Of a stretch of DNA of 64,000 nt, positions 1 through 19,807 are shown in pieces. A model generated the notes under the pieces. The model was not told where the DNA came from, did not search any database, and worked only from the letters and a program-made list of their open reading frames with translations. The DNA comes from Bacteroidota bacterium. GTDB lineage: Bacteria; Bacteroidota; Bacteroidia; NS11-12g; UBA9320. Within the stretch, counting starts at the first letter, position 1. The number at the start of each line of letters is the position of its first letter. The position numbers were made by a program, and so were the translations under genes. The stretch is taken from assembly GCA_013359235.1 (NCBI GenBank), contig JABWCE010000007.1:26609-90608 (forward strand), in the 5' to 3' direction.

Positions 1-283
1 CAGTTTCCACATGGCAAAACAGCAGGAATAATAACATTTTTGCCTATCAAATTTTTATCTCCATCCACTACTGTTCCGCTTATTTCATGACCAAGAGTTA
101 AGGGAAGAGTTTTTTTGGTTTGTACTCCGTAATGCCAAAAGCTCAAATCTGTATGGCAAACACCGCATCCTGCAACTTTTACAAGCACTTCTCCATCTGC
201 CAATTTTGGAAAATCACAATTTGTTTTGACAAAGTCTTTGTCAGTTTCTATCATTTGCCACTGGTACATTTTATCTATGTGCA
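1..283 (-). CDS. Zn-dependent alcohol dehydrogenase (MDR family), N-terminal part; continues beyond window start
   Basis: Reverse-strand translation from the ATG at 283 reads MHIDKMYQWQ...CGVCHTDLSFWHYG...GHEISGTVVDGDK. It carries the catalytic-Zn GHExxG and CGxCHTD motifs. It sits 4 nt downstream of the previous minus-strand gene. Confidence 0.55.
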
Positions 284-287
284 TTAT

Positions 288-466
288 TTATTTTTTTATA
301 TCATAAAAACATCTGACAGGAGAATACAATTTCCCTTCTGCCATCAATTTTTTTAGAGTTTTATCTACTATTTTTTTATCAATACCTGTAAGTTCAGCTA
401 TTTCGCCTCCTTTAAGTGGTTTGGCAGATTTTGAAATCTGTTTTAATATTTGTTCTGATGCTTCCA
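288..466 (-). CDS. small hypothetical protein, possible winged-helix/HTH
   Basis: Start trimmed to MEASEQILKQ to avoid overlapping the thiolase. The sequence KGGEIAELTGIDKKIVDKTLKKLMAEGKL resembles an HTH recognition segment. It is embedded inside the operon. Confidence 0.3.
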
Positions 467-474
467 TATTTTTT

Positions 475-1746: not shown

Positions 1747-3597
1747 TTAAACTAACTGTTTTGTTTTATTTTTTGATTCTTTAACAACTTCTGTATTTTT
1801 CCATGTTTGTTTTGCTATAATTGCAGCACCAAGCGAAACAACAAATTGAGGAAAATCAATTGTTTTAACTTCTCTATTAAATTTTTTAATTAAAATAGTA
1901 CTCATGTAAGGATGATGTGCAGCAACGCCTCCAATCATAAAAATAGGAATTCCGGGAACCAATCTCATTTTTGCAACTTTGTTTGCTATTGAAATGTAAA
2001 TACCTCTTGCAATATCTTGCATCGGCATTCCGTCAAATACCCAGTTCATAATTTCTGTTTTGGCAAAAACAGTACAAAAACTGTTTAATTCCTTGTCATA
2101 TTCTGAATGTGATGCAAGGTTGCTCATCTCTTCAATTTTTATTTCTGCTCTTTCTGAAATTTCTTCGAGAAAGGCACCGGTTCCGGCAGCACATTTATCA
2201 TTCATATAAAAGTTTGAAACTTGATTATCATTGTTACAATGAATTACTTTTATGTCTTCGCCACCTATATCTATAATATTTTTTTCTCCGTCATAAGAGT
2301 CTGAAACTCCTGCTGCTGCACAATTTATTTCGGTTTTTGTTATATCTGTTTCGGTAAAATGTTTTCTTCCGTATCCTGTAGCACAACTGTATTTTATATT
2401 GAATGATGAATAAATTGCCTTAATTACATTCTTCATTGCATTTCTGTCTTTATTCATGGTATGTACAATATATCTGAAAACAGGCTTTCCTTTCTCATTA
2501 ATAATTGTAAATTTGGTATATGACGAGCCCAGGTCCATTCCAAGAAAACAGTTTTGTTCTCTGTAGTATTGCAAAGGATGATTTTTTTCAACTAAACCTT
2601 TTAAAACGATTTTTTTGGTTAAAGAAGCATCAGCCCCCATGGGTCTATTCATTACGTTTTTATTAGTCATGGCTTTTATCATGTTTGTAAAAGCGAGGTT
2701 TAACGAAGTTTTTACATAATGCTTTTTGCCATATTCAACTATTTTACCATTGAAATAATCAATTTCGGTAGGACGGTTATTTATTAAATCTAAAGCTAAA
2801 GAAGGGAAATGCTCGCCTCCTTTTTTTAGGTATTGCATACACTTGCGGTAAAAATCGTCGGGAAAACGAATTTTTTCTTTTTCGGCAACTTCTATCCCTT
2901 CGTTTATTAATTGTTCAACGAGTTCAACAGTTTCGGGGTCAGACATTGCTTCGGCCATTGTAAGCCTGCCTACACCACAAAGTGGGCTAAGGGATGCGTT
3001 TAAAATTGTTTTTTCCCAAGTGCGTTTTAATATTTCAAACGAATTTATATTTTCTGTTTTAAAATCTACACTGTTTAATAAGTCTGCAAAAGTTTCGGAT
3101 TGTTTGCATCTGTTGTCATCAATAGAGCCTATATAGTTTGGTGGAGTAAAAAATGTAACTTTTACTGTATTAGGCGACATGAGGTTTCCGGCATAATTAA
3201 TAACCATTCTCAAGGTTTTTGATTCGCCAAAAACCGATGCTAAAATCTGTTCGGTATCTATTCCGTTTTGTGCAGCAATAACGGTCAATTTTTCGGAATT
3301 TAAAATTTCTGCTTCCTTTGCGGCGCCGAGTGTTTGGTATGATTTGAGGGCAAATATCAAATAATCAAGTCCCAAATTTCTCATTTCTGTAACAGAACTA
3401 TAAACATGTTCAAATCTGGTAATAGAAGCATATATATTTTCGAGTATTATTCCTTCGCTTATTACCTTTTTCAGTTTAAATTCGTCTTTATCACATAAAG
3501 CTACCTCGCAACCGGCCTCTTTTAACTTTACAGCCATTATCATACCCACAGGACCAATCCCCACTATTCCAACTTTTATTTTTTCTGATTTTTTCAT
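1747..3597 (-). CDS. fusion protein: ketopantoate-reductase-like (ApbA/PanE) NAD(P)-binding domain + BadF/BadG/BcrA/BcrD-type activase ATPase
   Basis: N-terminal ~310 aa begin KIKVGIVGIGPVGMIMAVKLKEAGCEV (Rossmann GxGxxG) with ApbA_C-like helical region. C-terminal ~300 aa carry MDLGSSYTKF...IGGEDIKVI...MNDKCAAGTGAFLE...IGGVAAH, the activase [4Fe-4S]-bridging Cys motif and ATPase motifs. Confidence 0.8.
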   Translation of the reverse strand: MKKSEKIKVGIVGIGPVGMIMAVKLKEAGCEVALCDKDEFKLKKVISEGIILENIYASITRFEHVYSSVTEMRNLGLDYLIFALKSYQTLGAAKEAEILNSEKLTVIAAQNGIDTEQILASVFGESKTLRMVINYAGNLMSPNTVKVTFFTPPNYIGSIDDNRCKQSETFADLLNSVDFKTENINSFEILKRTWEKTILNASLSPLCGVGRLTMAEAMSDPETVELVEQLINEGIEVAEKEKIRFPDDFYRKCMQYLKKGGEHFPSLALDLINNRPTEIDYFNGKIVEYGKKHYVKTSLNLAFTNMIKAMTNKNVMNRPMGADASLTKKIVLKGLVEKNHPLQYYREQNCFLGMDLGSSYTKFTIINEKGKPVFRYIVHTMNKDRNAMKNVIKAIYSSFNIKYSCATGYGRKHFTETDITKTEINCAAAGVSDSYDGEKNIIDIGGEDIKVIHCNNDNQVSNFYMNDKCAAGTGAFLEEISERAEIKIEEMSNLASHSEYDKELNSFCTVFAKTEIMNWVFDGMPMQDIARGIYISIANKVAKMRLVPGIPIFMIGGVAAHHPYMSTILIKKFNREVKTIDFPQFVVSLGAAIIAKQTWKNTEVVKESKNKTKQLV

Positions 3598-4058: not shown

Positions 4059-5282
4059 TTATTTATGTACTAAAACTTTATTACTTGTAATTTGCTCAAT
4101 AAAAGTTTCAATTTTGGTAATACTTTGCCCTTCTGAGTAAAATCTTAGGTCGCACAAATCGCCTTCAATTATCAAAGTGGGTATTCCTGTGCTTTCTGTT
4201 AATCTTTGTGGCAAGCCAAATCTGGAGTTTGAGTTGTTTGCACAGGTTTTTGCATCGTGAAATATTACTCCATCAATTTTAAAGGTTTTGCATAAATCAG
4301 TAAGTATATTTTGTTTTGCATTTTCGCTTCTGTTTATAAAAATTTCAGTATATGCTTTTGCTGATGACTCAAATGGATTTTCGGGGTCGAATGCATCAAA
4401 AACCCAACTGTTGCAATAAGTTGAAGCAACTACTGCTGCATTATTTTGTATAAACAAATCTGAAAGTGATCTTAATTTACCCCAGATTGGCATTCCGTCC
4501 CAGTACAAACGGCAACTTTCGCTTTCCAAAAATCCAATACCTTTTGCAACGTTTTCTTCCATTTCTTTTAGCAAAATTGTATAATAATCTTTTGCCTGTT
4601 GAGTTCCTCTTAAAACAACAATAGGACCCATGTGTATTGTAGCATCAAAAAAACTAATTGGCGAAGGTGTGTTAGTAGCAGTATAAAGTACTTTTTTCCA
4701 AAGGTCTGTAGCTTCTTTGCTCAATTTTAAAGTTTCTCTGAATTTATCAATATCAAATTTTTTTCCGCTTACTTCTTCGCAAACAGGTATCATTTTTCTG
4801 AATTGTGCAGCAACATCTTCTATTACTTCTTCTTTTATTTCGTCTAAGTGCCGTGGGGGGTAAATTCCAATAACCGGCACATTGAGTTCGCGACCAAAAT
4901 ATGTAAACCAATCTTGCACTTCTCTGCACTGGTTTGTGTTGTACACAATCAAATCAGGCTTTGGCGGACCTTCAAGACCGTAGTGTTCTTGCAGAGGTGT
5001 TTCTCCTTTAAGATATGAACCAATATCAGCAGTAAGATAAGAGCAAATATCGTTTGAATATCCAAACTTTGCTGATTCGGGAATAAGATCACCTGCTGTA
5101 CGTGTAGCACCGAGTAATGCTCCATGATTTTCGGGAAAATGTACTTCAAAGCCAAATGAACGCAAAAGTTCGGCTGGTCCTACACTTGTACACCATGCTA
5201 TTTTTTTATTTTTATTTTTCATACCGAGGAAATAATTTCCCATTATTTCCTTCATCACTTTTGTACTTTGTATTTTATACAT
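4059..5282 (-). CDS. 2-hydroxyacyl-CoA dehydratase / BcrB-BcrC family protein (HGD-D domain), lone subunit
   Basis: 407 aa. N-terminal KKIAWCTSVGPAELLRSFGFEVHFPENHGALLGA and the overall pattern are typical of the HgdB/YjiM/DCCP family. No paralogous partner gene is adjacent. Confidence 0.75.
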   Translation of the reverse strand: MYKIQSTKVMKEIMGNYFLGMKNKNKKIAWCTSVGPAELLRSFGFEVHFPENHGALLGATRTAGDLIPESAKFGYSNDICSYLTADIGSYLKGETPLQEHYGLEGPPKPDLIVYNTNQCREVQDWFTYFGRELNVPVIGIYPPRHLDEIKEEVIEDVAAQFRKMIPVCEEVSGKKFDIDKFRETLKLSKEATDLWKKVLYTATNTPSPISFFDATIHMGPIVVLRGTQQAKDYYTILLKEMEENVAKGIGFLESESCRLYWDGMPIWGKLRSLSDLFIQNNAAVVASTYCNSWVFDAFDPENPFESSAKAYTEIFINRSENAKQNILTDLCKTFKIDGVIFHDAKTCANNSNSRFGLPQRLTESTGIPTLIIEGDLCDLRFYSEGQSITKIETFIEQITSNKVLVHK

Positions 5283-7433: not shown

Positions 7434-8270
7434 TCAGGCTACAACTGCCTGTTTTTCTTTAAGTTTTATATGTCTGAAACCGCCCCATAATGCAGCACCA
7501 ATTGCACCTGCATAAATTGCATCAGGATGAGAATGTATTTGATATGATTTTCCCATCTCTTCAAGTTGCTCTTCAAGAGCTTGTATCATACCTTTATTTA
7601 AAGCCATTCCACCTGTAACAACAATGGGCGATTCGGCTTTTAGCGAACTTAAAAGTTTTAGTATTCTGTTGGCAATTGAGATATGAATTCCTTTTATAAT
7701 ATCGGGAGTTGAAATTCCTCTCGAAACCATATTTATAACATCAGTTTCGGCAAGAACAGCACATATTCCTGAAGAAATTTCGGGATTTTGTGATTGCATT
7801 GATACATCGCCAACTTCTTCAATTGAAAGTCCTAAATATCTTGAAATATTTTCAACAAACTGCCCCGATCCCGAAGCACATTGTCCAGTCATTTTGTAAT
7901 CGTAAACTCTTGCATCTTCAGATATTTTTATTGCTCTTACATAAAGTGCTCCCATATCTACCACGGTAATTGCATTGGGGTATAGAAAATGGGCGCCTTT
8001 TGCATGAGTAGTCATTCCATAAAAATGTCCTCTTTTTCTTTTTACCAAATCACCCTCGCCTGTTGAAGCAAAGTAGGCAATATCTTCGTATTTGAGGTTG
8101 TGTTTTGATAGCATTTTCTGAGTCATTTCTTCTGCAACCTGCGATGGATCGCGTTTTCTTATCTTTTCGGTGTGTTTGTCTATAAGTTTGGGATTATCAG
8201 AATAATCAACAAGTACTAATTTTATGAAATTAGACCCAACATCAATCCCCATTGTATAAAAATTTTCCAT
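7434..8270 (-). CDS. BadF/BadG/BcrA/BcrD-family ATPase, short form (BcrD/activase-like)
   Basis: 278 aa. MGIDVGSNFIKLVLVD, MTGQCASGSGQFVE Cys motif and GGMALN. Lacks the insertion seen in the upstream paralog. Confidence 0.8.
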   Translation of the reverse strand: MENFYTMGIDVGSNFIKLVLVDYSDNPKLIDKHTEKIRKRDPSQVAEEMTQKMLSKHNLKYEDIAYFASTGEGDLVKRKRGHFYGMTTHAKGAHFLYPNAITVVDMGALYVRAIKISEDARVYDYKMTGQCASGSGQFVENISRYLGLSIEEVGDVSMQSQNPEISSGICAVLAETDVINMVSRGISTPDIIKGIHISIANRILKLLSSLKAESPIVVTGGMALNKGMIQALEEQLEEMGKSYQIHSHPDAIYAGAIGAALWGGFRHIKLKEKQAVVA

Positions 8271-8287
8271 ATCTATTATTTATTAAT

Positions 8288-9712
8288 CTATTGAATTGCT
8301 TCTTGTGTTTTTTTATTTGAAGGAAGGTCGGCACTAATGTTTCTTCTGGCAAACATTGCTCCTCCCAAAGCGCCCATAAATATTGAATCAGTATGAATAT
8401 TTATTGTTATATCATTGCCGTAATTGTCTCTTACAAGCTGGGTAAGATATTTGATAACAGCAGGATTTCTGGCAACTCCTCCGGTAAATGTAAACTCGTT
8501 GAAAACACCACCCGAACGTGCTATAAGCGACATTGCACGCATAATAATTGCTTTGTGCAAGCCACCGAGTATATCTTCACGTTTTTCGCCAAGGTTTGTA
8601 AGTTCTCTAAGTTCTGCACCTGCAAAAACTGTACATGTTGAGCAAATATTTACTTCCTTTTGAGCTTCCATTGCCATTGGTCCAAGTTCGTTTAACGAAA
8701 TACTCATCTCGTCGGCAATATACCCAAGGTATCTGCCACATCCAGCAGCACAGCGGTCGTTCATTTGAAATGATGTTACAAGTCCATATTTATCAACCTG
8801 TATTGCTTTTGTATCTTGCCCGCCAATGTCGAGTACTGTTCTTGTGTCAGGAAAAACAGCATGTGCCCCAAATGCATGGCACAATATTTCGGAACGAATA
8901 CATTCTTGAGGGAAGGGCAATAATGCTCTGCCATAGCCTGTACCGGTCATATTTTCGATATGAAATTCGAGATCGGCAATGTCGTCAATATGAGAACGAA
9001 GTGTTTCTGAAACCTGGTCAAAATTTCCTTTCAGCAAATTCATTTCTGCATCAAAGTTTATACTTTCGTTTTCGGCTACTGTATCGGGCAAGTTTTTGTA
9101 TTTTTCTTTAAGCTCAACCATAGCTTTGTGTACCAGTTCTTTGAAATCGAATTTAATTCTTTCGTTTTCGGCCGGAGAAATACTTTTGTCCCAAACGGTC
9201 ATTAGTGGCTCGAAAAGTGCCATTTCTAATTTGTTTACTTCTTCGTTGTATTTTTCTGATACAATATCTCTGAAAAACTGATTTTTTTCACCCAGATTGT
9301 TGTACAAATAATCGTGCTTTATTTTTGGTTTAAAGGCTTTGCGAATGTTTCTTAAATGACCTAGAATTTCATTTTTTTGTTCATCGTTTTTAAAAAAATT
9401 GTTGCAAGTTTTTACTAGTTCATCGCCCAATTTATCTAGTTTTATTTTAAATTGTTCGTATTGAAATACACTTTCGAGGTCTGAAATGTATTTTTTGTAT
9501 TCGGGTTTCGAAATTATTTCTTTTTCAAGGTTTTTTTTAAGAATTGAAAATCTAGCATTGTATGTAGCTTCATCTCTTGCTATATCGGCTGCTACAGAAT
9601 AATTTGCACGGGTGTTTGTAATACCTCTACCTATTATTTCGTCTTGCTCGTTGATAATTACAGCTTTTGAAGTTGTGGAGCCGAGGTCAACTCCAAGATA
9701 ATATTTGCTCAT
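8288..9712 (-). CDS. BadF/BadG/BcrA/BcrD-family ATPase, long form with ~190-aa helical insertion (BcrA/BadF-like)
   Basis: 474 aa. YYLGVDLGSTTSKAVII, then a long charged insertion, then IGGQDTKAIQV, MNDRCAAGCGRYLG and TGGVARN. The size and insertion position match the large ATPase subunit of class-I benzoyl-CoA reductases. Confidence 0.75.
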   Translation of the reverse strand: MSKYYLGVDLGSTTSKAVIINEQDEIIGRGITNTRANYSVAADIARDEATYNARFSILKKNLEKEIISKPEYKKYISDLESVFQYEQFKIKLDKLGDELVKTCNNFFKNDEQKNEILGHLRNIRKAFKPKIKHDYLYNNLGEKNQFFRDIVSEKYNEEVNKLEMALFEPLMTVWDKSISPAENERIKFDFKELVHKAMVELKEKYKNLPDTVAENESINFDAEMNLLKGNFDQVSETLRSHIDDIADLEFHIENMTGTGYGRALLPFPQECIRSEILCHAFGAHAVFPDTRTVLDIGGQDTKAIQVDKYGLVTSFQMNDRCAAGCGRYLGYIADEMSISLNELGPMAMEAQKEVNICSTCTVFAGAELRELTNLGEKREDILGGLHKAIIMRAMSLIARSGGVFNEFTFTGGVARNPAVIKYLTQLVRDNYGNDITINIHTDSIFMGALGGAMFARRNISADLPSNKKTQEAIQ

Positions 9713-9725
9713 TTTATTATTTTTT

Positions 9726-11027
9726 TTAAACTGTTACTGATTCTTGTGATAAAATTATTTTACGTTGCTCAAGCATTTGAAAATACGATTCAAGTCTGTT
9801 TTTAATATTTGCATACGAAAAATACCTTGGGTCAACAAGGTCGCTTTCAATAAAACCAACCGGAACGCCAGTGCGTTGTTCTATTTCACGCATTATCATA
9901 AGTTGCCCTGCAGAAAATGAATTGCATGATTTAATTGAGTTAATCAAAAATCCGTCAGCTTGATATTCTTTTACATATTTTTCTATGAGATCAACCCTTT
10001 GTGGAAGGTTTAGATTGGTATAACAACCCATACAATATGTAGCAAGGCTTTCGAGTGGCTCTTCGGGGTTTTGGCGATATCCTAAATCATAAACACCGCC
10101 TACTTTTGTATAAGTAGATGCTACAATTACAGCACCCATATCATAAAATATTTTCCAAAATTCGCGGAAGTTTGTCCAGTTGGGAGGTCCTTCTACTACA
10201 AGACGGAAGCGTTCTTTTTGCATTTCGCCTTCTGGGGTTACCGGAAGTAATTTTTTTTCAGCTCTGTCTTTTATTTCGTGATAAAGTTCTTTGTAATATT
10301 CAAGACATTCGTCTGACCCTCTAAAGGCGGTATTTATAGGACCCATGTAATAAACTCCGGCAAAATACGCATCAATTGGCGATGGTTTGATTTTGGCAAG
10401 TTGCAATACTTTTACCCAGTAATCTTCTGATTGAACCGAGTTGCTCAATAGTTTGCTTAATCTGGCAGAATCAAATTTTTTACCTGATACTTTTTCAAAT
10501 TTTGGCAAAACTTCTTCTTTTAGTTGTTTCACCATATAATCAATTTGTTCTTTTGTTATTTTGCCATCTTCCTGATATGGTGTGTGCAACATTGCTATTT
10601 CGGCATTTGGATAAAGTCTGTTGAGATTTTCAAACCATTTTAGAAATGTAAAACATCCTGTATAGCTCAAAAGTAGCAAATCTGGCTCGGGAAGTTTTTC
10701 TCCTGTAGGACCTATATTTCCGTTTAACATCATTCCTATATCGCATTTCACATAAGTACATACATCTTCTGAATGACCCATTTTTTCGGCATCTTTTATA
10801 TACCCGCCCGATTTTTTTCTCATACCCGATTGTAAAGCGTTAATCTCGGGATATACCGGAAGCATATCGAATGACAAAATGAGTTCTATCAAGTTGCCGG
10901 GGACAAACGTATAACAAACTTTTTTGCCTGTTTCTTTTGCTTTGCTAAGGTCATTAAATTGTTTAGCGAGCATTTCTTTTTGAATAATCATGCTCTTTTC
11001 TTTTACTGCATCTTTTGGATTTGCCAT
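9726..11027 (-). CDS. HgdA/HgdB-BcrB/BcrC family subunit (BcrB-like, 433 aa)
   Basis: HGD-D-type sequence (KKVCYTFVPGNLIELILSFDMLPVYPE, conserved Cys). Paralogous to the next gene. Confidence 0.7.
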   Translation of the reverse strand: MANPKDAVKEKSMIIQKEMLAKQFNDLSKAKETGKKVCYTFVPGNLIELILSFDMLPVYPEINALQSGMRKKSGGYIKDAEKMGHSEDVCTYVKCDIGMMLNGNIGPTGEKLPEPDLLLLSYTGCFTFLKWFENLNRLYPNAEIAMLHTPYQEDGKITKEQIDYMVKQLKEEVLPKFEKVSGKKFDSARLSKLLSNSVQSEDYWVKVLQLAKIKPSPIDAYFAGVYYMGPINTAFRGSDECLEYYKELYHEIKDRAEKKLLPVTPEGEMQKERFRLVVEGPPNWTNFREFWKIFYDMGAVIVASTYTKVGGVYDLGYRQNPEEPLESLATYCMGCYTNLNLPQRVDLIEKYVKEYQADGFLINSIKSCNSFSAGQLMIMREIEQRTGVPVGFIESDLVDPRYFSYANIKNRLESYFQMLEQRKIILSQESVTV

Positions 11028-11076
11028 ATTCTTTAATCTTTTAAAATTTCTACTGCTTTTTCAAATTTATGTTTTT

Positions 11077-12240
11077 TTATGCCCAAAGTTTTATCGAGTC
11101 TGAAAATGTTCCGGCTTGTTCTTTTATTACTTTAAACTGCCCTGTATTTTCGTGATATTGGAAGTTTATATGCGGAACACCTGCCGCATCACATTCTTTT
11201 TGCATTTCGGGGCGGTCTAACAGAGCTGGGTCGCAAAAACTTGCAGCCGAAAATATAACACCATCAGCTTCTCTTCTTTTTACAAGTTCTACAAGTCTTT
11301 TACCTTTTGGATTTCCTACATCGTAATAGCACGAAGCAAAAGTACTTTGGTTGAGATATGCTTTTGTGATAGCTTCGAGGGGGTCGTTGGTATCTTCTTC
11401 AATATCTCCTTGTATCCATCGTGAGCCAAGCATAAAATCGTCGTCAACAATGTAGCATCCAGCCATTTCTATTGATTTTATTAATCCCACTGGCGGTTGT
11501 TCGCAAAACGAGCCTGAAACCACAACTCTAATATTATCCATTGCCTCGCCTCTTTCATTTCTTATTACATTTAATATTTTCTGAAGCATTTCATTGTGTT
11601 CTTCTACTGTAATGCAAATACCGGCTCTAAGAATATGATATGTTTCTACTGCCGAAAGCCTCCAAGGATATTTTTGCCTTATGTCGTAAATCTCTTCTAT
11701 TAACCTTCTGTTTATATTGTAAAGTTTTATTGCTTTATTAAGACCGTCAACACTTGCTTTTACACCATTTACATTGTAAATATCATCTATTACTTTTTCC
11801 ATTTCATGTTTGTAAAATGTACCTCCTATAAATGGGTCAAAGTTTTGTGCATAATCAAAATATCTTTGAAATTTACCTTTTTTTGACAACTTAAACATAC
11901 CTGATAGATTTCTTACGCAATCGCAAATTGCAGGAAATAAAAACCCATCAAAACCATTTAGATTATTATCCAAAGCCATTTCAATTATTCCACGAGGCAA
12001 ATGACAAATGTAAGATTGATAATATGCATCGCCTTTAATAATTTGTTTGCGGTCGCCTGTACCCATAATTCCCACAGCTATACCATTGGCTGCATGAATT
12101 ATTTCTCGAGGAACATATATTGGCAGATATCCAACAATTACTCTTTTTTCATCTTTGCTTTTCCATTGTTTTGCATGAGTAAATTCGAGGTCGAATGCTG
12201 TTTTTTCGCACCACGATAATATTTCTTCTAAACTATTCAT
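11077..12240 (-). CDS. HgdA/HgdB-BcrB/BcrC family subunit (BcrC-like, 387 aa)
   Basis: HGD-D-type sequence (VIVGYLPIYVPREIIHAANGIAVGIMG...ICDCVRNL). First gene of the operon. Confidence 0.7.
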   Translation of the reverse strand: MNSLEEILSWCEKTAFDLEFTHAKQWKSKDEKRVIVGYLPIYVPREIIHAANGIAVGIMGTGDRKQIIKGDAYYQSYICHLPRGIIEMALDNNLNGFDGFLFPAICDCVRNLSGMFKLSKKGKFQRYFDYAQNFDPFIGGTFYKHEMEKVIDDIYNVNGVKASVDGLNKAIKLYNINRRLIEEIYDIRQKYPWRLSAVETYHILRAGICITVEEHNEMLQKILNVIRNERGEAMDNIRVVVSGSFCEQPPVGLIKSIEMAGCYIVDDDFMLGSRWIQGDIEEDTNDPLEAITKAYLNQSTFASCYYDVGNPKGKRLVELVKRREADGVIFSAASFCDPALLDRPEMQKECDAAGVPHINFQYHENTGQFKVIKEQAGTFSDSIKLWA

Positions 12241-12281
12241 TTCTTTTTTAAAAAGTATTTATTTGATAATATAATGTGTGG

Positions 12282-12289
12282 CAAATTTA
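12282..12289 (-). promoter_or_regulatory. candidate Bacteroidota -7 element (TAAATTTG on minus strand) upstream of the bcrC-like gene
   Basis: Matches TAnnTTTG about 45 nt upstream of the ATG at 12240, in the 154-bp intergenic region after rsfS. Confidence 0.25.
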
Positions 12290-12394
12290 TTTTTGTTTAG
12301 TTTGCAATGTAATGATTAAAATCATGCTTAAACAGTTGAACTTTAATCAGCTTTAATTGTTTAAAAAGAAAAGGTTTCTGATTTTTAAGGTTTT

Positions 12395-12766
12395 TTACTC
12401 TACATCACTGTATTTAGTCATTTTGCCATCGTTCCACAATTCTTCAAGGTTATAATAAAATCTTTTTTCACGATTAAAAATATGAACAATTACATCGCTA
12501 TAATCTATTATAATCCATTCGGCATTCATAAATCCTTCGCGGCTAAAAGGTTTTAATCCAGTAGCTTTTCTCACTTCATCTTCAACAGAATCGGCAATTG
12601 CATCAATTTGCTTTGATGAATCAGCATGACATATTACAAAAAAATCGGCAATTGTAATTTTTAGTTTTCTCAGGTCAATTTTTACAATGCTTTTGGCTTT
12701 TTTTTCCTGCATCCCTTTTACTATGATGTCAGCCAGGTTGTTGCCTGATACGGCTTTTTTCAACAT
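12395..12766 (-). CDS. rsfS: ribosome silencing factor RsfS (Iojap family)
   Basis: 123 aa, with IVKGMQEKKAKSIVKIDL...ICHADSSKQIDAIADSVEDEV typical of RsfS. Confidence 0.85.
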   Translation of the reverse strand: MLKKAVSGNNLADIIVKGMQEKKAKSIVKIDLRKLKITIADFFVICHADSSKQIDAIADSVEDEVRKATGLKPFSREGFMNAEWIIIDYSDVIVHIFNREKRFYYNLEELWNDGKMTKYSDVE

Positions 12767-12817
12767 TCAGTATTTTTATATTTATTTTTGCTTCCGCAAA
12801 AATCGTAAAAATTTCAA

Positions 12818-13582
12818 ATGACACATTCTTTTTTTGAAAAAATAACTTTTTATTATTTTGATGAAACAGATTCTACAAACGATTTAGCAAATTTGCTTCT
12901 TAAACAAAACAAAGCAGAAAATGGCGATGTAATTGTTACAAAATTTCAAACCAAAGGAAAAGGACAATCGGGCAGCAATTGGTTTTCTGAAAGAGATAAA
13001 AGTGTTTTGATTTCGCTTATTTGCAAAGAAATAAATATAGATATTTCAATGCTCACAACAATAAATATGCTTGTTTCGCTAGCCTTATCAAAAACAATAA
13101 AAATTTATCTGCAAAATGAAAATATTAAAATAAAGTGGCCAAATGATATTTATGTAAACAATAAAAAAATTTCGGGTATTTTGATTGAAAGTAATATAAT
13201 TGGTGATACATTAAAAAATATAATAATAGGGATTGGGATAAATGTGAACCAAGATAATTTTCCCGACTTATTGCCCCTTGCCTGTTCTTTTTATACAATT
13301 TCTAACAAAAAGTTTGACACTAATGAAATAACAGGTGTTTTAATTGACAATTTGAACAAGCAACTTGCAGAAATTAAATATTTTGACTTAGAAAAAATTA
13401 AAAGCGAATACGAGTCACAATTATACGGCAAAGATGAGAGTAAGCAGTTTATTAGTAATGGCAAATCATTCGAAGGTACAATAAAAGGAATAAATAAAAA
13501 TGGGCAATTAGAAGTATTAGTAAATAATAATTTAGAAATTTTTAACAATAAAGAAATAGAATTTGTACGGAGCAGTAATTGA
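12818..13582 (+). CDS. birA: biotin--[acetyl-CoA-carboxylase] ligase
   Basis: 254 aa. GKGQSGSNWFS and KWPNDIYVNNKKISGIL motifs of BPL/LPL catalytic domain. Confidence 0.8.
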   Translation: MTHSFFEKITFYYFDETDSTNDLANLLLKQNKAENGDVIVTKFQTKGKGQSGSNWFSERDKSVLISLICKEINIDISMLTTINMLVSLALSKTIKIYLQNENIKIKWPNDIYVNNKKISGILIESNIIGDTLKNIIIGIGINVNQDNFPDLLPLACSFYTISNKKFDTNEITGVLIDNLNKQLAEIKYFDLEKIKSEYESQLYGKDESKQFISNGKSFEGTIKGINKNGQLEVLVNNNLEIFNNKEIEFVRSSN

Positions 13583-14279
13583 CATAGGGAACACACGCAT
13601 AAAAGCGGCAATTTTTGAAAATGATATTTTAAAAAAGAAATTTGATTTTGAAAATTTTAACGACCTTATATTATTCGTCAAACAATTTACAGTAGATATA
13701 CCTGTAATAATTTCGGATGTAACAAGCAGCGATATTAATTCGTTAAATGCTTATATCAAAAAACTTATAATTTTGGATTGTAAAACTCCTATACCCATAA
13801 AAAATAATTATAAAACTCCTGATACTCTCGGTTACGACAGACTTGCTGCAGCAATTGGAGCTTCAGCAAAATATAAAAATGAAAACGTACTTGTGATAGA
13901 TATGGGAACTTGCATAAAATACGATTTTATAAATGAAAAACTTGAATACTACGGGGGTAGCATTTCTCCGGGTCTTGAAATAAAATTTCAAGCACTTAAC
14001 CACTTTACACAAAAACTACCACTTGAAAATAAAAACTATGAATTTTCGCTAATTGGAACTACAACTTCCGAAGCAATTGTAAACGGTGTAATGAATGGAA
14101 CTCTTGCCGAAATAAATGGTATTATACAAGAATATAAAATTACATACCCAAACATAAAAGTTGTAATAACCGGAGGTGATATGTTGTATTTTGCAGATAA
14201 AATTAAAGGAGTGATATTTGCAGACCCCGATTTGGTATTCAAAGGGCTTTACGAAGTATTAAAATATAATGTTAAATAA
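13563..14279 (+). CDS. coaX: type III pantothenate kinase
   Basis: VIDIGNTRIKAAIFEND N-terminus, GYDRLAAAIGA and ITGGD motifs. Overlaps the end of birA. Confidence 0.85.
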   Translation: MYGAVIDIGNTRIKAAIFENDILKKKFDFENFNDLILFVKQFTVDIPVIISDVTSSDINSLNAYIKKLIILDCKTPIPIKNNYKTPDTLGYDRLAAAIGASAKYKNENVLVIDMGTCIKYDFINEKLEYYGGSISPGLEIKFQALNHFTQKLPLENKNYEFSLIGTTTSEAIVNGVMNGTLAEINGIIQEYKITYPNIKVVITGGDMLYFADKIKGVIFADPDLVFKGLYEVLKYNVK

Positions 14280-15600
14280 AACAGCAATTATCCTGCTACT
14301 GGCAGAAATTTTATGGACAACCAAAGCACATAGCCAGCAAAACACCCGTTCGCCGTATTCGCTTTTTGGAGTTGGTATATTGCACAGCGAAAGTTTTGCC
14401 GATATTTCGGCATTGGGCAGAAACAATACATCTTACCGTTTTCAAAGTAATTATTCGTTAAAAAACCCTGCATCACTTTCGGCTTTGAACGTTTCTGTAT
14501 TTAATGTTTCTCCATTTTTTGAACTTGGAAATTATAAAACCGGCACACAAACTAATGATTTTTCTAATGCAGGTTTCAACTATATATCGCTTGCTGCACC
14601 TATTAAAAAATACAAAAGCGGTATAGCATTTTCGTTGCTTCCATTTTCTGACATAGGCTACAACATTTACAACACAAAAGATTCGGGAGGTGTGAGCATA
14701 CGAAATGAATACCAAGGCAGAGGGGGTCTTTCAAGATTTAATATAGGAGCAGGTACTCAAATTTTTAAATATTTAAGTGCCGGAATAAGCTATTCTTATA
14801 TTTTTGGGCAAGTGGACGAAACTCAAAAGCGAAGATACCCCGGGAATAGAGTTTTGACAAGTGTGTCTGACAACAACAACCTATATTTGAGAGGCAGCAG
14901 GCTCGATTTAGGGTTACAGTTCCATATTTTATCAGATTCTGGATTAAATCATATTTTGGGTTTAAATTTTACAAGCAATGCAAAACTAAAAGGCGAACAA
15001 AATAGATTAATATATACATTTACAGAGTTGTACAGTGGTAGTGAAACTATTTGGGATACTATTTTATTCGATAAAGAAAAATCAGCTAATATCACTTTAC
15101 CACAAAACATTAATGTTTCTTATACAATAGGGAAAAGCGAAAAATGGCAAGCAAATGCAGCAATAAGTAAAAATATGTGGAGCAATTTTAATAGTATAAC
15201 AGACCACAAAAACAGCTTTATAAACGAGAATCAAATATCTTTTGGTTTTTTTATTTGCCCTAAACCCATATTCGACAAATCAATTAAAAACGATAAGGTG
15301 AAAAACTATTTAAAAAGCATTAGGTATAGTGCCGGATATTATCAGAGTTCGGGTTTTGTAAAAATTAATGATAAAAATATTGTAGAAAATTCAATTAGTT
15401 TTGGTATTGGTTTACCATTTACACAAATACATAAGCACGTTGACGGTACAAGAATTATAAGTACTTCCCGAATATTTTTAACTGCCGAATACATTTCAAG
15501 AGGCACAACTCAAAATAATCTGATAAAAGAAAATTTTTTTAGACTAACTTTAGGCTTAAATCTTGCCGATAAATGGTTTAACAAAAGGCTTTACAATTGA
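14269..15600 (+). CDS. putative outer-membrane beta-barrel protein (signal peptide, conserved between coaX and lptC)
   Basis: 443 aa with N-terminal signal peptide and Ser/Tyr/Gly/Asn-rich alternating pattern typical of OM barrels. Confidence 0.5.
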   Translation: MLNKTAIILLLAEILWTTKAHSQQNTRSPYSLFGVGILHSESFADISALGRNNTSYRFQSNYSLKNPASLSALNVSVFNVSPFFELGNYKTGTQTNDFSNAGFNYISLAAPIKKYKSGIAFSLLPFSDIGYNIYNTKDSGGVSIRNEYQGRGGLSRFNIGAGTQIFKYLSAGISYSYIFGQVDETQKRRYPGNRVLTSVSDNNNLYLRGSRLDLGLQFHILSDSGLNHILGLNFTSNAKLKGEQNRLIYTFTELYSGSETIWDTILFDKEKSANITLPQNINVSYTIGKSEKWQANAAISKNMWSNFNSITDHKNSFINENQISFGFFICPKPIFDKSIKNDKVKNYLKSIRYSAGYYQSSGFVKINDKNIVENSISFGIGLPFTQIHKHVDGTRIISTSRIFLTAEYISRGTTQNNLIKENFFRLTLGLNLADKWFNKRLYN

Positions 15601-16151
15601 TGATTTTGATAAAGTATTATAAACTTCTTATTTTTTTCATAGCATTTGGAGCTATTGTAGCTTGTGCTCCTGATAAAGAAAAACTTAAAAAAGTAAGAAA
15701 AATCAAAACTGAAATAGGTGTTGAAAAAGCAACCGAAGTAACTATTAATTATACTGATTCGGGCAATTTGAGGGCAAAAATTTACTCACCATTAATAGAG
15801 CATTATCAGCAAAAAGCCGAACCTTACTCAGAAATGAAAAAGGGTGTAAAAGGTTTTTTTTATAACAATTACGGCAAAATTGAAAGTTCGCTTACAGCCG
15901 AATACGCCATAAGCTACGAAACACGTAGAATTGTGGTTGTAAAAAACAATGTGAAAGTACTGAATATGCGTGGCGAAGAGTTGGAAACCGAAAAACTTAT
16001 ATGGGACCAACAAAAAGAAAAGATTTATACAGATAAATTCGTAAAAATAAAAACACCCGATGAAATATTATACGGCAATGGTCTTGAATCAAACCAAAGT
16101 TTTACCCGATATAGAATTAATAAACTAAGAGGAAGAATAACAGTAAAATAA
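15597..16151 (+). CDS. lptC: LptC-like periplasmic LPS export protein
   Basis: 184 aa, N-terminal TM/lipobox, beta-jellyroll-like repeats. Position after coaX is typical for Bacteroidota. Confidence 0.5.
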   Translation: MMILIKYYKLLIFFIAFGAIVACAPDKEKLKKVRKIKTEIGVEKATEVTINYTDSGNLRAKIYSPLIEHYQQKAEPYSEMKKGVKGFFYNNYGKIESSLTAEYAISYETRRIVVVKNNVKVLNMRGEELETEKLIWDQQKEKIYTDKFVKIKTPDEILYGNGLESNQSFTRYRINKLRGRITVK

Positions 16152-16155
16152 GGAT

Positions 16156-16353
16156 ATGAGAAGATTTATAGAGATTATGTGGCTTGCAATTGCAGCGGTG
16201 TCTGTTGTTGAAATTATAATTGCCTACAAACAACAAGGAGCATCAAGCCGTAATTTACAAATGTTTGGTGTAGTATTAGTTGTAGCATTGTTTATGTATT
16301 TTCTAAGAAAAAGGCAGCGAAAAAATATTGACTCAAATAATAGTGGGAAATAA
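16156..16353 (+). CDS. small two-TM membrane protein (hypothetical)
   Basis: 65-aa ORF with hydrophobic segment and basic tail, 5 nt after the lptC-like gene. Confidence 0.25.
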   Translation: MRRFIEIMWLAIAAVSVVEIIIAYKQQGASSRNLQMFGVVLVVALFMYFLRKRQRKNIDSNNSGK

Positions 16354-16444
16354 CTTGTTTTTCTTCATTCTTTAAACAATGCTTACTTTGTACAACTCCT
16401 AAAAAAACAAAATAATTAAAATAATTTTGGGTTTAATAAATTTT

Positions 16445-18280
16445 TTACAATTTCTCTGGCAGTGTGTATTTTCTTCCTTTATTTGCTTTTTTCAAATAAA
16501 TAAGTAAAGGTTCAAAATACTCAAGCATTGGTTTGGCACTCATTTCAGAACCTAAATGGTTTTTAAGATGTTGTCTCCAATCAACACTGGCACCTGGATA
16601 CATAAGATCTTTAAGAAACTTTCCTGTTTCTTTGCTTCCCCAGTAGTTGGTATTATGAGGGTCTTGTTTTAAAATTTGCTTAGAAATATGGTCATGAAAC
16701 TGGAATAAAAGTACATTGCTCATTGAGTAATCGTAATACTGTGCTGCATCATCGTTTATATGTGTTTTTGTGGCAGCATCGCAATATTCTTCACCTCTAT
16801 CTGTTGGAGGAATAATTCCCTGATATTTTTTAACATAATTCCACCATGTTTTGTTAAACTCATTTATAGTAATATTTTTTGAGTACAAATCATGTTCAAA
16901 TGCAGTCATAACTCCTGCACCCCAAGGAATATGAACAATAAAATCAAGCGATTCTTTAAGTAAGTTAATTGTATCGTTAGAGGTTTCGTCTTTCCCAATT
17001 AATCCAAAATTTTGTAAAAAAGGTTTTTGCAAAGCTGCAAGTCCAATCAAACTACCCATTGCCTCGTGATAAGCTCTATTTGCTCCACTTCTCAAAATCA
17101 AAGGGACATCATTGTTTGAATAGCTAATGTAATAATAAATATGCCCCAACTCATGTAAAACCGTACCCCACCACTCGGTATTAGGCTCAACACTCATAAG
17201 GCTTCTCACGTCTAAATTATTATCAATATGCCACGCACTTGCATGGTTGTTTTTTTTATACTTAACTTCGGGAGGTAAAGGATACAAACTTGATTTTTCG
17301 TAAAAAGATTTAGGTAGTTCAGAAAAACCGAGGCTTTTGTAAAATTCTTCACCTTGCTTTACTATCCATTCGGCATTTTTTGTTTTAAGTTTTTCGTCAA
17401 GATTAATTCCTGATGAATTCACCATGGCTGTCCAATCTTGTCCCCATCTGTTTGGTAGCCAATGAGCCGGAATGTAATCGGGTACATCTTGCTTGTATCT
17501 TGCAGCAAGTTCGTAACGTGCCCAAGTATGTAATTCTCGGTAAAGTGGCCATACATCATTAATCATCTGACTACAACTCTGCATAATTTCGTCTGATGTC
17601 ATGCCGTATTCAGAAGCCTGATAATCAAAAAAATCTTTATAGCCGAGAGCCTGAACTGATTTATTTCTTAAATTTCTTAAATTCTCAAGTCCGTTTTTCA
17701 ATGTTTTTCCAACTTCTTTGCTTGTACTCCATACTTTTAGTCTTTCTTCAAGTTTATTTGATTTTCTTAAAATATCGTCAATATTGTTTGTAGTTACCTC
17801 TTTGTTGTCAATCAAATATTTATATCCATATAATAACCCTATTTGATTTGTTTCTGCTTTAATTTTTTGCTTTACTATATCGCTTACAGTTTCAGGATTG
17901 GCACCTGCCATAAAAAGAATTGTTTCAAGTTGTTTTACTTGTAAGGGTGATAATTTATCCTTTGTTTTCAGGTATTTTCGGGCTTTTTCAATATTAATTT
18001 TGCTACCTGTAAATTGTGCAAATTTTTCGGCTGCATCGCTTGCTTGTTTTGATGTAATAGAATCTCCTTCAATAATCATTGTGTTTAGTTTCCATTGAGC
18101 TTCATTGTTTACAGTAAGCAATTTTTGAAATTCAATATTGTACGAATCAAGATATTTTTGAACTTCGTTTTGAAGTTCCTTATTTTCATTGGTTTTATTA
18201 CAATTCATATTTGTCATCAAAATTATTGCTATCATAAAAAACAAAATTTTTAAATTTATTTTTTTTAAATTCTCTTTCAT
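16445..18280 (-). CDS. M2-family peptidyl-dipeptidase (angiotensin-converting-enzyme-like), secreted
   Basis: 611 aa with signal peptide. Zinc site VLHELGHIYYY (ACE HEMGH-type) plus a downstream Glu ligand. Size matches a single ACE domain. Confidence 0.75.
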   Translation of the reverse strand: MKENLKKINLKILFFMIAIILMTNMNCNKTNENKELQNEVQKYLDSYNIEFQKLLTVNNEAQWKLNTMIIEGDSITSKQASDAAEKFAQFTGSKINIEKARKYLKTKDKLSPLQVKQLETILFMAGANPETVSDIVKQKIKAETNQIGLLYGYKYLIDNKEVTTNNIDDILRKSNKLEERLKVWSTSKEVGKTLKNGLENLRNLRNKSVQALGYKDFFDYQASEYGMTSDEIMQSCSQMINDVWPLYRELHTWARYELAARYKQDVPDYIPAHWLPNRWGQDWTAMVNSSGINLDEKLKTKNAEWIVKQGEEFYKSLGFSELPKSFYEKSSLYPLPPEVKYKKNNHASAWHIDNNLDVRSLMSVEPNTEWWGTVLHELGHIYYYISYSNNDVPLILRSGANRAYHEAMGSLIGLAALQKPFLQNFGLIGKDETSNDTINLLKESLDFIVHIPWGAGVMTAFEHDLYSKNITINEFNKTWWNYVKKYQGIIPPTDRGEEYCDAATKTHINDDAAQYYDYSMSNVLLFQFHDHISKQILKQDPHNTNYWGSKETGKFLKDLMYPGASVDWRQHLKNHLGSEMSAKPMLEYFEPLLIYLKKANKGRKYTLPEKL

Positions 18281-18324
18281 AATGCCTGCAAATTAGCAAA
18301 AAAATAAAAATGGTAAAAAAAAAT

Positions 18325-18360
18325 CTCCGTTGGTAACAACCAACGGAGATTTATAATAAA
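18325..18360 (-). terminator. Rho-independent terminator after the susC-susD pair
   Basis: 11-bp perfect stem ATCTCCGTTGG / CCAACGGAGAT with 6-nt loop, followed on the minus strand by a run of 9 T. Confidence 0.6.
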
Positions 18361-18374
18361 TGAAAACAACAAAA

Positions 18375-19787: not shown

Positions 19788-19807
19788 GATTATATCCTCC
19801 TATCTAA

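Follow-up and report, generated by a model that had tools for sequence, protein, structure and literature searches.

We analyzed a 64-kb stretch of a Bacteroidota bacterium genome (assembly GCA_013359235.1, contig JABWCE010000007.1, forward-strand positions 26,609 to 90,608), referred to here as the window, and focused on the gene at positions 4059-5282, whose product we provisionally call HGDx. The initial annotation of a 407-aa member of the HGD-D family, which includes the benzoyl-CoA reductases (BCR) and 2-hydroxyacyl-CoA dehydratases (HAD), was upheld by PF06050, which covers residues 34-398 (E value of 8.5e-65, 220 bits against a cutoff of 28.4). HGDx is a genuine gene and not a chance open reading frame (ORF). 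At an E value of 1e-10 or lower it matches 7643 database proteins, and among GTDB species genomes at least 550 stretches carry orthologues with 68-92% identity, the majority of them in Bacteroidota metagenome-assembled genomes (MAGs) from stratified lakes, groundwater, peat, and activated sludge, together with some Ignavibacteria. Only three HGD-D genes are present in the window (HGDx, BcrB, and BcrC), all in one minus-strand operon with the order BcrC, BcrB, BcrA, BcrD, ADP-forming acyl-CoA synthetase, HGDx, a small gene that we call orf148, a PanE-activase fusion, thiolase, a 59-aa ORF, and the beginning of Had (Table 1). As Had runs off the window edge, the operon must continue beyond it. 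Spacing is tight, with 49 nt between bcrC and bcrB and only 5 to 19 nt between the genes from bcrB through the thiolase, including 5 nt between the synthetase gene and HGDx, which it precedes, and 9 nt between the fusion gene and the thiolase downstream. The synthetase and the activase fusion had been correctly named as neighbors of HGDx in the initial annotation, which overlooked orf148 between HGDx and the fusion.

Table 1. Features of the operon that contains HGDx (window coordinates).
Feature	Coordinates	Strand	Family or evidence
HGDx, predicted beta-less alpha/catalytic-type BCR/HAD (HGD-D) member, 407 aa, ATG start	4059..5282	-	PF06050
PanE/ApbA reductase and activase fusion, 616 aa	1747..3597	-	PF02558, PF08546, PF01869
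orf148, Cys-rich stand-alone C-terminal subdomain of an ANL ligase, 148 aa	3605..4051	-	Alignment to type-B AMP ligases, Foldseek
ADP-forming (NDP-forming) acyl-CoA synthetase, fused alpha and beta domains, 708 aa	5288..7414	-	PF13549, PF13607, PF13380, PF19045
Thiolase (acetyl-CoA C-acyltransferase family), 420 aa	475..1737	-	PF00108, PF02803; TIGR01930, 390 bits (cutoff 240)
BcrC-type (beta/gamma-type) subunit of a Thauera-type class I benzoyl-CoA reductase, 387 aa	11077..12240	-	TIGR02263, 456.7 bits (cutoff 421)
BcrB-type catalytic subunit, 433 aa	9726..11027	-	TIGR02260, 680.8 bits (cutoff 486)
BcrA-type ATPase subunit, 474 aa	8288..9712	-	PF01869; TIGR02259, 439.8 bits (below cutoff of 578)
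BcrD-type ATPase subunit, 278 aa	7434..8270	-	TIGR02261, 320.7 bits (above cutoff of 312.85)
59-aa ORF between thiolase and Had (MEASEQILKQ...)	288..467	-	Translation
First 94 aa of Had (6-hydroxycyclohex-1-ene-1-carbonyl-CoA dehydrogenase), a Zn-dependent alcohol dehydrogenase truncated at the window edge	1..284	-	Translation

Among relatives with a solved structure, HGDx is closest in sequence to the alpha subunit HadB (E value of 3.8e-51, 28% identity), followed by MbdO (3.3e-37), BzdO (1e-21), the double-cubane cluster protein DCCP (5.7e-6, over the C-terminal two-thirds only), and BzdN (0.32). The best NCBIfam match is the HadB equivalog NF052455, at 221.2 bits against a cutoff of 750, so HGDx is not an orthologue of HadB. 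Scores were likewise below the cutoffs for BcrB (TIGR02260, 173.1 against 486.55 bits), BzdO (TIGR03191, 80.8 against 448.6 bits), and the double-cubane family (NF040772, 59.9 against 350 bits, residues 151-398 only). When HGDx was compared by profile (hhalign) with its own operon, it aligned with BcrB over the full length at 30% identity and a probability of 100, against a probability of 19 for BcrC. The AlphaFold2 model (pLDDT of 85.8, pTM of 0.88) superposed best on the HadB alpha subunit in Foldseek (TM score of 0.90 to 0.92, root mean square deviation of 2.2 Å), followed by MbdO and BzdO (0.86 to 0.89), DCCP (0.71 to 0.77), and beta-type subunits (0.69 to 0.72), and the top 20 PDB matches were all members of the BCR/HAD family. 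From the sequence ranking, the best NCBIfam hit, the profile comparison, and the fold superposition, we predict that HGDx is a catalytic, alpha-type, CoA-ester-binding member of the family, similar to HadB and then to MbdO, BzdO, and BcrB, and neither of the HgdB/beta type nor a cluster-IV double-cubane protein. The "HgdB-family" label that it was first given is therefore incorrect. The active site is not that of BcrB/BzdO, since the catalytic His131 and Trp46 of BzdO are replaced by V122 and G35, as in HadB; the conserved Glu of the PEN motif is shared with BcrB, BzdO, and MbdO. Protein names of distant HGDx relatives are generic ("BcrC/BadD/HgdB" or "2-hydroxyacyl-CoA dehydratase") and gave no clue to the substrate.

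The cysteine pattern was examined in an alignment with HadB, HadC, MbdO, MbdN, BzdN, and DCCP, whose sequences were rebuilt from HMMER alignments, and with Escherichia coli YjiM. The numbering of BzdN was checked against its published ligands (Cys36/73/100/263/293/327) and Arg53 (PMC11971306), and the seven-Cys double-cubane cluster (DCC) motif was taken as CX19CX18-19CX29CX166-170CX32-34CX32C (PMC7317905). C80, C119, and C347 of HGDx, at the ligand positions of the catalytic [4Fe-4S] cluster, are invariant in 121/121 orthologues and align with the HadB ligands and with C95, C128, and C380 of BzdO. The six DCC ligand columns are all Cys in YjiM, DCCP, and BzdN, while HadB, BcrB, and MbdO have Cys in the three proximal columns only. 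HGDx has Cys in columns N2, N3, C2, and C3 (four of the six), and its N1 Cys is one residue out of register: C290 aligns exactly with BzdN C263 (which follows strand 2 of the C domain), DCCP C309, and YjiM C273, and C31 is one residue off BzdN C36, DCCP C76, and YjiM C40. The sixth-ligand loop is missing, as it is from every alpha-type subunit, and so is the seventh Cys of the motif. The initial annotation had proposed a comparison of cysteine ligands with DCCP, YjiM, and HgdB; in our alignment HGDx keeps the three Cys of the catalytic cluster and lacks the seven-Cys pattern of DCCP. Its broader proposal of a DCCP/YjiM-like protein did not hold, given the low NF040772 score, the weak DCCP match, the lower TM scores, and the missing sixth-ligand segment.

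C31 and C290 show no variation among the Bacteroidota orthologues (121/121 and 76/76) and are retained by six of seven relatives examined at 38-54% identity (P0121-P0126 and P0134). The corresponding positions in HadB are Ser and Pro. They occupy two of the three distal-cubane positions, C31 being one residue off, and may form a partial DCC-like site. In BzdO the same space holds Trp46 and the benzoyl ring (PMC11971306), from which we infer that C31 and C290 are likely to point at the acyl group or to hold something else there. As a substitute distal ligand, C377 was the only candidate; it is near-invariant within the Bacteroidota clade and not conserved outside it, and C257 was discarded as variable (C/S/T). 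In two PanE::HGD-D fusions (P0127 and P0141) and in P0153, an unfused relative, the three cluster Cys are replaced (by S/G/S, S/G/T, and Q/G/N, respectively); these proteins may be inactive or repurposed.

To place HGDx in its genomic context, we examined 80 loci, each with flanks of at most 10 kb, and eight more from more distant relatives, and the tally of beta-type genes spans 89 loci. The window contains no beta-type HGD-D gene besides BcrC, and across the 89 loci such genes never exceed what Bcr requires. Two alpha-type genes and one beta-type gene (BcrC) are present in 51 of the 89, and one alpha-type gene with no beta-type gene in 32, many of which lie on short contigs. L070 and L077 seem to be exceptions, but their BcrC is split into two overlapping pieces (2190-3339 and 1614-2764, respectively) by a frameshift or an assembly error. 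The same layout recurs, in unrelated contexts, in relatives at 38-54% identity that carry C31 and C290, on short contigs (6.5 to 22 kb; L081-L085) where neither a beta gene nor Bcr was found: HGDx, activase, and ADP-forming synthetase in L082; ApbA, HGDx, activase, and AMP ligase in L083; HGDx and activase in L084; ApbA, HGDx, and activase in L085; and an ApbA::HGDx fusion, activase, and xanthine dehydrogenase (XDH)-family genes in L081. In L075 the HGDx module stands beside a Bzd-type reductase in place of Bcr. Relatives at a similar distance that lack C31 and C290 are canonical, with the order beta, alpha, and activase in L088 and activase, beta, and alpha in L089; L087 is ambiguous.

Co-divergence across loci, measured as Spearman rho, gave a consistent picture. 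The divergence of HGDx tracks that of the PanE-activase (rho of +0.76) and of orf148 (+0.55) and does not track Bcr (BcrC, -0.18; BcrB, 0.01; BcrA, -0.26; BcrD, 0.06), while the BcrCBAD subunits track one another (0.66 to 0.83), which suggests that the HGDx module evolves independently of BcrCBAD. The genes for the BcrC partner and the BcrAD ATPase pair share the operon with HGDx, yet their coefficients stay between -0.26 and +0.06, and the subfamily also occurs without Bcr on short contigs. Because of the beta-type tally, the lone distant loci, and the divergence pattern, the gene-level evidence favors an HGDx without a dedicated beta subunit and argues against an obligatory sharing of BcrC. 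The adjacent beta gene of heterodimers of the HadB/HgdA/FldB type is absent, and the architecture, as read from the genes alone, agrees with a single subunit type served by one activase-like reductase, as in double-cubane proteins. The lone HGD-D subunit of the initial annotation is thus sustained, and so is its dedicated activase (TIGR00241, 167.9 bits within the 616-aa fusion), as an activase is adjacent to HGDx in every relative examined. With no dedicated second HGD-D subunit, an activase of its own, and recurrence in unrelated contexts, including contigs where no Bcr was seen, HGDx also fits the earlier proposal that the operon encodes another ATP-dependent enzyme besides Bcr, and we take it to be a radical enzyme.

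HGDx is constantly accompanied by the activase and a PanE/ApbA-family reductase, a triad kept down to 38% identity (L085, L083, and L081). In the window, both are domains of the fusion protein, with a PanE/ApbA-type NAD(P)H-dependent 2-oxo-acid reductase at residues ~1-320 (TIGR00745, 160.8 bits, cutoff of 141) and an HgdC/HadI-type ATP-dependent activase at ~350-595 (above the TIGR00241 cutoff of 125). The PanE motifs QNG, WxKxxxN, and S..D....R.TE are kept in at least 95% of 63 orthologues, and we take them to contain the equivalents of Asn98, Lys176, Asn180, Ser244, and Glu256 of E. coli ketopantoate reductase. The Cys of the activase that bridge the cluster, C469 and C508, are kept in 63/63 and 62/63 orthologues and lie 39 residues apart, as in HgdC, so HGDx has the dedicated activase typical of 2-hydroxyacyl-CoA dehydratases. 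PanE is fused to the activase in the window and in most Bacteroidota loci, encoded separately in L063, L075, L062, L083, and L085, and fused to HGDx itself in P0122 (728 aa), P0141, and P0127; fusion to either partner suggests that PanE and the HGDx-activase system are functionally linked. A CoA ligase is usually adjacent, being ADP-forming as in the window in 45/80 loci (type A) and an AMP-forming enzyme of ~582 aa directly upstream of HGDx in 26/80 (type B). The best NCBIfam matches of the window synthetase are 4-hydroxybutyrate-CoA ligase and acetate-CoA ligase (ADP-forming), both below cutoff, and it is probably the CoA-activating (or ATP-yielding) enzyme of the module. The thiolase is conserved in 55/80 loci. 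Hydantoinase A/B genes, which code for ATP-dependent enzymes similar to caprolactamase and acetophenone carboxylase, follow HGDx and the PanE-activase in seven loci (for example, L012 at 8540-12501 and L063 at 7899-14357), and a sodium:solute symporter adjoins HGDx in L056 and L063.

The product of orf148, identical to P0271 ("hypothetical protein HUU47_05060 [Bacteroidetes bacterium]"), has no match in Pfam or NCBIfam. It aligns with the C-terminal ~150 aa of the 582-aa type-B AMP ligases, one homologue carries PF23562, and in Foldseek the top matches of orf148 are without exception adenylating enzymes. Its model has low confidence (pLDDT of 63.8), so the geometry of a metal site cannot be derived from it. 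An invariant motif (C33-H-Y, C75-F-C77-P-R, and C87-x3-C91) is common to orf148 and the type-B ligases and absent from the ordinary C_3-domain ligase of L083. Stand-alone copies retain this motif, and the segment with the catalytic Lys of the ligase (A10) is deleted or degenerate in them. We considered whether orf148 could be a truncated beta subunit and rejected this, as alignment and fold matches identify it as the C-terminal subdomain of an ANL ligase. It looks like a ligase domain that gained a metal-binding site and, after the ligase was replaced, survived separately, always next to HGDx, and it may be an accessory or metal-binding partner of HGDx. It is missing from several type-A loci.

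The genes around the module point to aromatic metabolism. BcrB, BcrC, and BcrD score above the NCBIfam equivalog cutoffs for the Thauera-type benzoyl-CoA reductase, and the best PDB match of BcrC is MbdN (E value of 1.2e-55). In locus L001, which is 91% identical, Had (TIGR03201, 461 bits, cutoff of 338), Oah (TIGR03200, 588 bits, cutoff of 464), and a Dch-like hydratase come after the thiolase, at 15004-17928, and 32 loci add a fusion of 3-hydroxyacyl-CoA dehydrogenase and enoyl-CoA hydratase. Considering the Bcr subunits, these genes of L001, and the start of Had in the window, HGDx is predicted to sit midway in a complete benzoyl-CoA degradation operon. Dozens of MAGs of uncultured Bacteroidota, and some of Ignavibacteria, share this Thauera-type class I pathway (BcrCBAD, Had, Oah, and the Dch-like hydratase), and we found no paper describing this. 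The window BcrC has no Cys at the N1 and C2 double-cubane columns of BzdN and DCCP and carries, like MbdN, invariant Cys elsewhere (C246, within GSFCEQPP, and C262), a pattern which suggests that the cluster held by this subunit may not be the same in Thauera-type and Azoarcus-type reductases.

A second recurrent association is with XDH-family genes. XdhC and MocA, with or without XDH-family subunits, are found at the edge of the cluster in at least 35/80 loci, although none of these genes is in the 64-kb window. The small, medium, and large XDH subunits, XdhC, and MocA come directly after the PanE::HGDx fusion and activase in L081 (XDH genes at 13019-18157). The large subunit best matches the alpha subunit of 4-hydroxybenzoyl-CoA reductase (4-HBCR; 733 bits, below cutoff), which suggests an acyl-CoA substrate, while the FAD subunit resembles XdhB over its full length and not the 4-HBCR beta subunit. 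XDH-family genes with XdhC and MocA recur beside the HGDx module in two distant lineages, as seen in L081, in L075 (14286-21190), and at the edges of the 35 or more loci named above. Among the remaining features, the 59-aa ORF is kept at 53-73% identity in L001, L020, L023, and L048, and a small DNA-binding protein is only a guess for its product. A peptidase M2 gene (angiotensin-converting-enzyme family) lies directly downstream of a pair of SusD-like and TonB-dependent-receptor genes (16445-22948, minus strand), suggesting a peptide-uptake locus unrelated to HGDx. No tRNA genes were found in the window.

We favor, with moderate confidence, a self-contained module that would convert a 2-oxo acid (or 2-oxoacyl-CoA) through an (R)-2-hydroxyacyl-CoA to an enoyl-CoA by ketyl-radical chemistry, with HGDx as a beta-less, oxygen-sensitive, and probably homodimeric iron-sulfur enzyme. 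This is because the four functions of the classical 2-hydroxy-acid route are present (2-oxo-acid reductase, CoA activation, radical dehydratase, and ATP-dependent activator), two of them fused in varying combinations. The PanE domain would reduce the 2-oxo acid (or 2-oxoacyl-CoA) to the (R)-2-hydroxy compound, and the ligase would supply the CoA thioester. Using ATP and reduced ferredoxin or flavodoxin, the activase would inject one low-potential electron into the three-Cys [4Fe-4S] cluster of HGDx, which, in the absence of a beta subunit, would probably work as an alpha2 homodimer. In HAD alpha subunits, the [4Fe-4S]-OH2 cluster with three Cys binds the thioester carbonyl (PMC7317905, PMC11971306); here, the carbonyl would bind the free iron and be reduced to the ketyl radical, the alpha-hydroxyl would leave, the beta-proton would be removed, and the enoyl-CoA would be released with return of the electron. 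C31 and C290 would lie where double-cubane proteins hold the distal cubane and BzdO holds the acyl group. The enoyl-CoA could then enter beta-oxidation through the adjacent thiolase. Our favored substrate would be phenylpyruvate or phenyllactate (or a 4-hydroxy counterpart), which would be converted to cinnamoyl-CoA and on to benzoyl-CoA and acetyl-CoA, and the benzoyl-CoA so formed would be degraded by BcrCBAD, Dch, Had, and Oah. A route from phenylpyruvate through phenyllactyl-CoA and cinnamoyl-CoA to benzoyl-CoA has so far only been hypothesized (PMC13416013, 2026).

The choice of substrate rests on genomic context, which fits two routes equally well: phenylpyruvate/phenyllactate fits the operon position and the adjacent thiolase, and 2-oxoglutaryl-CoA fits the XDH-type enzyme and the PanE::HGDx fusion. 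In the latter, which we consider possible though doubtful, the same chemistry would act on 2-oxoglutaryl-CoA (or 2-oxoglutarate/2-hydroxyglutarate), giving (R)-2-hydroxyglutaryl-CoA and glutaconyl-CoA, or run in reverse. In this way the module would connect crotonyl-CoA and the thiolase with either an XDH-family enzyme that hydroxylates a (hetero)aromatic acyl-CoA or the lower (glutaryl/glutaconyl-CoA) branch of the benzoyl-CoA pathway. PanE and HGDx would then catalyze consecutive steps on CoA esters, which would explain their fusion. The L081 cluster with its 4-HBCR alpha-like large subunit and the frequent XdhC/MocA neighbors in Bacteroidota agree with this, and there is a parallel in the Trudgill pathway of furoate degradation, where 2-oxoglutaroyl-CoA is made via a Mo-dependent furoyl-CoA dehydrogenase (PMC3223595). 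However, the window has no XDH-family gene, and neither a glutaconyl-CoA decarboxylase nor a glutaryl-CoA dehydrogenase is among the conserved neighbors. The invariance of C31 and C290, their retention in distant relatives, and their alignment with the distal cubane instead raise the question of a net-reductive radical reaction with stoichiometric use of ATP, for example one that reduces or reductively dehydroxylates a substituted aryl- or 2-oxo/hydroxyacyl-CoA. The pair, which should face the substrate if the space is used as in BzdO, would either donate hydrogen, a proton, or an electron or else bind an additional Fe-S unit. Reductive aryl-CoA chemistry is also the setting indicated by the association of the module with Bcr and a 4-HBCR-like enzyme. 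We regard this as unlikely, as overall similarity is highest to a dehydratase, V122 and G35 stand in place of His131 and Trp46 of BzdO as they do in HadB, the single homodimeric-type activase (not a BcrAD-like pair) is typical of catalytic and not stoichiometric electron supply, and the conserved PanE partner fits the classical 2-hydroxy-acid route.

The presence in 51 of the 89 loci of exactly one beta-type gene (BcrC) and a paralogous BcrB in the operon of HGDx, together with the full-length similarity to BcrB, would also be expected if HGDx were an alternative catalytic subunit of benzoyl-CoA reductase, pairing with BcrC and perhaps BcrAD on a second aromatic CoA ester. This is very unlikely in view of the activase of its own, a divergence that is correlated with the PanE-activase and not with BcrC, BcrB, or BcrA, the occurrence of the subfamily with a Bzd-type reductase (L075) or on short contigs with neither Bcr nor a beta gene (L063 and L081-L085), the existence of PanE::HGDx fusions, and the low TIGR02260 score (173 against 486 bits). 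A DCCP/YjiM-like homodimer with a double-cubane [8Fe-9S] cluster, reducing small molecules or some other substrate, would share with HGDx the lone subunit with an activase-like reductase, as in DCCP/DCCP-R and YjiM/YjiL (PMC7317905), and the aligned Cys in four of six DCC columns with a fifth one residue off. We deem it extremely unlikely, since NF040772, the E value to DCCP, and the TM scores all fall well short of those for HadB or of the cutoff, the sixth-ligand loop and the seventh motif Cys are absent, C377 is limited to one clade, and the adjacent CoA ligases and HadB-like fold point to a CoA-ester substrate. The context of CoA ligase, PanE ketoreductase, and thiolase fits a CoA-ester dehydratase better than small-molecule reduction.

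Several points nevertheless weigh against the beta-less 2-oxo acid to enoyl-CoA module. Our view is limited to the window, or to at most ±10 kb in other genomes, and a beta subunit may be encoded elsewhere, while BcrC of the same operon could in principle be shared. HGDx is far from the HadB equivalog (221 against 750 bits) and only 28% identical to HadB, and the C31/C290 pair is without counterpart there, so that HGDx may carry out something other than a simple dehydration. The neighborhood of the HGDx loci has no conserved aminotransferase, the nearby hydratases and dehydrogenase are all assignable to the benzoyl-CoA pathway itself, and the thiolase and even the ligase could serve that pathway as well (in 3-oxopimelyl-CoA cleavage and benzoate activation, respectively). 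Last, unless PanE uses a 2-oxoacyl-CoA, the step catalyzed by PanE is separated from that of HGDx by the activation with CoA.

Among the known systems, HadBC/HadI of Clostridioides difficile (PDB 3o3m) resembles HGDx in the three cluster Cys, the C-x-x-V after the second ligand, the adjacent ASKHA-type activase gene, and a pathway with a 2-oxo-acid reductase and a CoA-activating enzyme. It differs in its HadC-type beta subunit, in the Ser/Pro of HadB at the positions of C31/C290, in using a separate D-2-hydroxyacid dehydrogenase (LdhA) where the HGDx module has a PanE/ApbA reductase fused to the activase, and in activation by a CoA transferase instead of an ADP- or AMP-forming ligase. The FldABC/FldI/FldH system of Clostridium sporogenes, compared here by its description in PMC13416013 only, follows the logic that we propose (arylpyruvate to aryl-lactate, aryl-lactyl-CoA, and cinnamoyl-CoA, with an ATP-dependent initiator). 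As described there, FldBC is a heterodimer in complex with a CoA transferase, whereas the HGDx module would be beta-less, and the product is reduced to phenylpropionate in Clostridium, while that of HGDx would be beta-oxidized to benzoyl-CoA. DCCP/DCCP-R and YjiM/YjiL share with HGDx one HGD-D subunit type, one activase-like ATPase gene, and the two-domain fold, but these cluster-IV proteins contrast with HGDx, which falls in the alpha/catalytic sequence cluster, has a fold nearer to the CoA-ester-binding subunits, and has a conserved CoA ligase, ketoreductase, and thiolase as neighbors. BcrB, BzdO, and MbdO share with HGDx the three cluster Cys, the Glu of the PEN motif, and a benzoyl-CoA operon setting, and the BcrB of the window operon is its paralogue; HGDx is set apart from BcrB/BzdO by Val/Gly in place of His131/Trp46, a single activase and not a BcrAD heterodimer, and its independent evolution.

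Family surveys describe catalytic and support subunits, cluster-IV double-cubane homodimers, and activase fusions (PMC7317905, PMC11971306), with TudS as a further member in the second of these (PMC11971306). In our literature search we found no description of an alpha-type, beta-less HAD subfamily with a PanE partner, of a PanE-activase fusion, or of this Bacteroidota bcr operon. To our knowledge, every 2-hydroxyacyl-CoA dehydratase or class I benzoyl-CoA reductase characterized so far is an alpha/beta heterodimer, and the only single-subunit members that we know of (DCCP/YjiM) contain a double cubane and lack a known physiological substrate. We are likewise not aware of Bacteroidota being a phylum known for anaerobic aromatic degradation. 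A more speculative scenario, to which we give little weight, is that the beta-less subfamily with C31 and C290 is a third, hitherto unrecognized BCR/HAD architecture, in which an alpha2 homodimer would still make use of part of the ancestral distal-cubane site, whether for an additional Fe-S unit or for a pair of Cys with a redox or hydrogen-donor role. It would be intermediate between the homodimeric DCCP and the heterodimers, in Bacteroidota it may be assisted by orf148, and with PanE it would open an undescribed anaerobic route from aromatic 2-oxo/2-hydroxy acids or XDH-generated 2-oxoacyl-CoAs into the benzoyl-CoA pathway.

As a predicted alpha-type, beta-less subfamily with a clear metabolic context, HGDx and its relatives offer a tractable system to study the need for a beta subunit or a second cluster, and they bear on the evolution of the family from DCCP-like ancestors. 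Many uncultured Bacteroidota and Ignavibacteria of freshwater, groundwater, and peat appear to carry a complete ATP-dependent benzoyl-CoA pathway together with this uncharacterized peripheral module, a combination that is relevant to the anaerobic turnover of aromatic and humic carbon.

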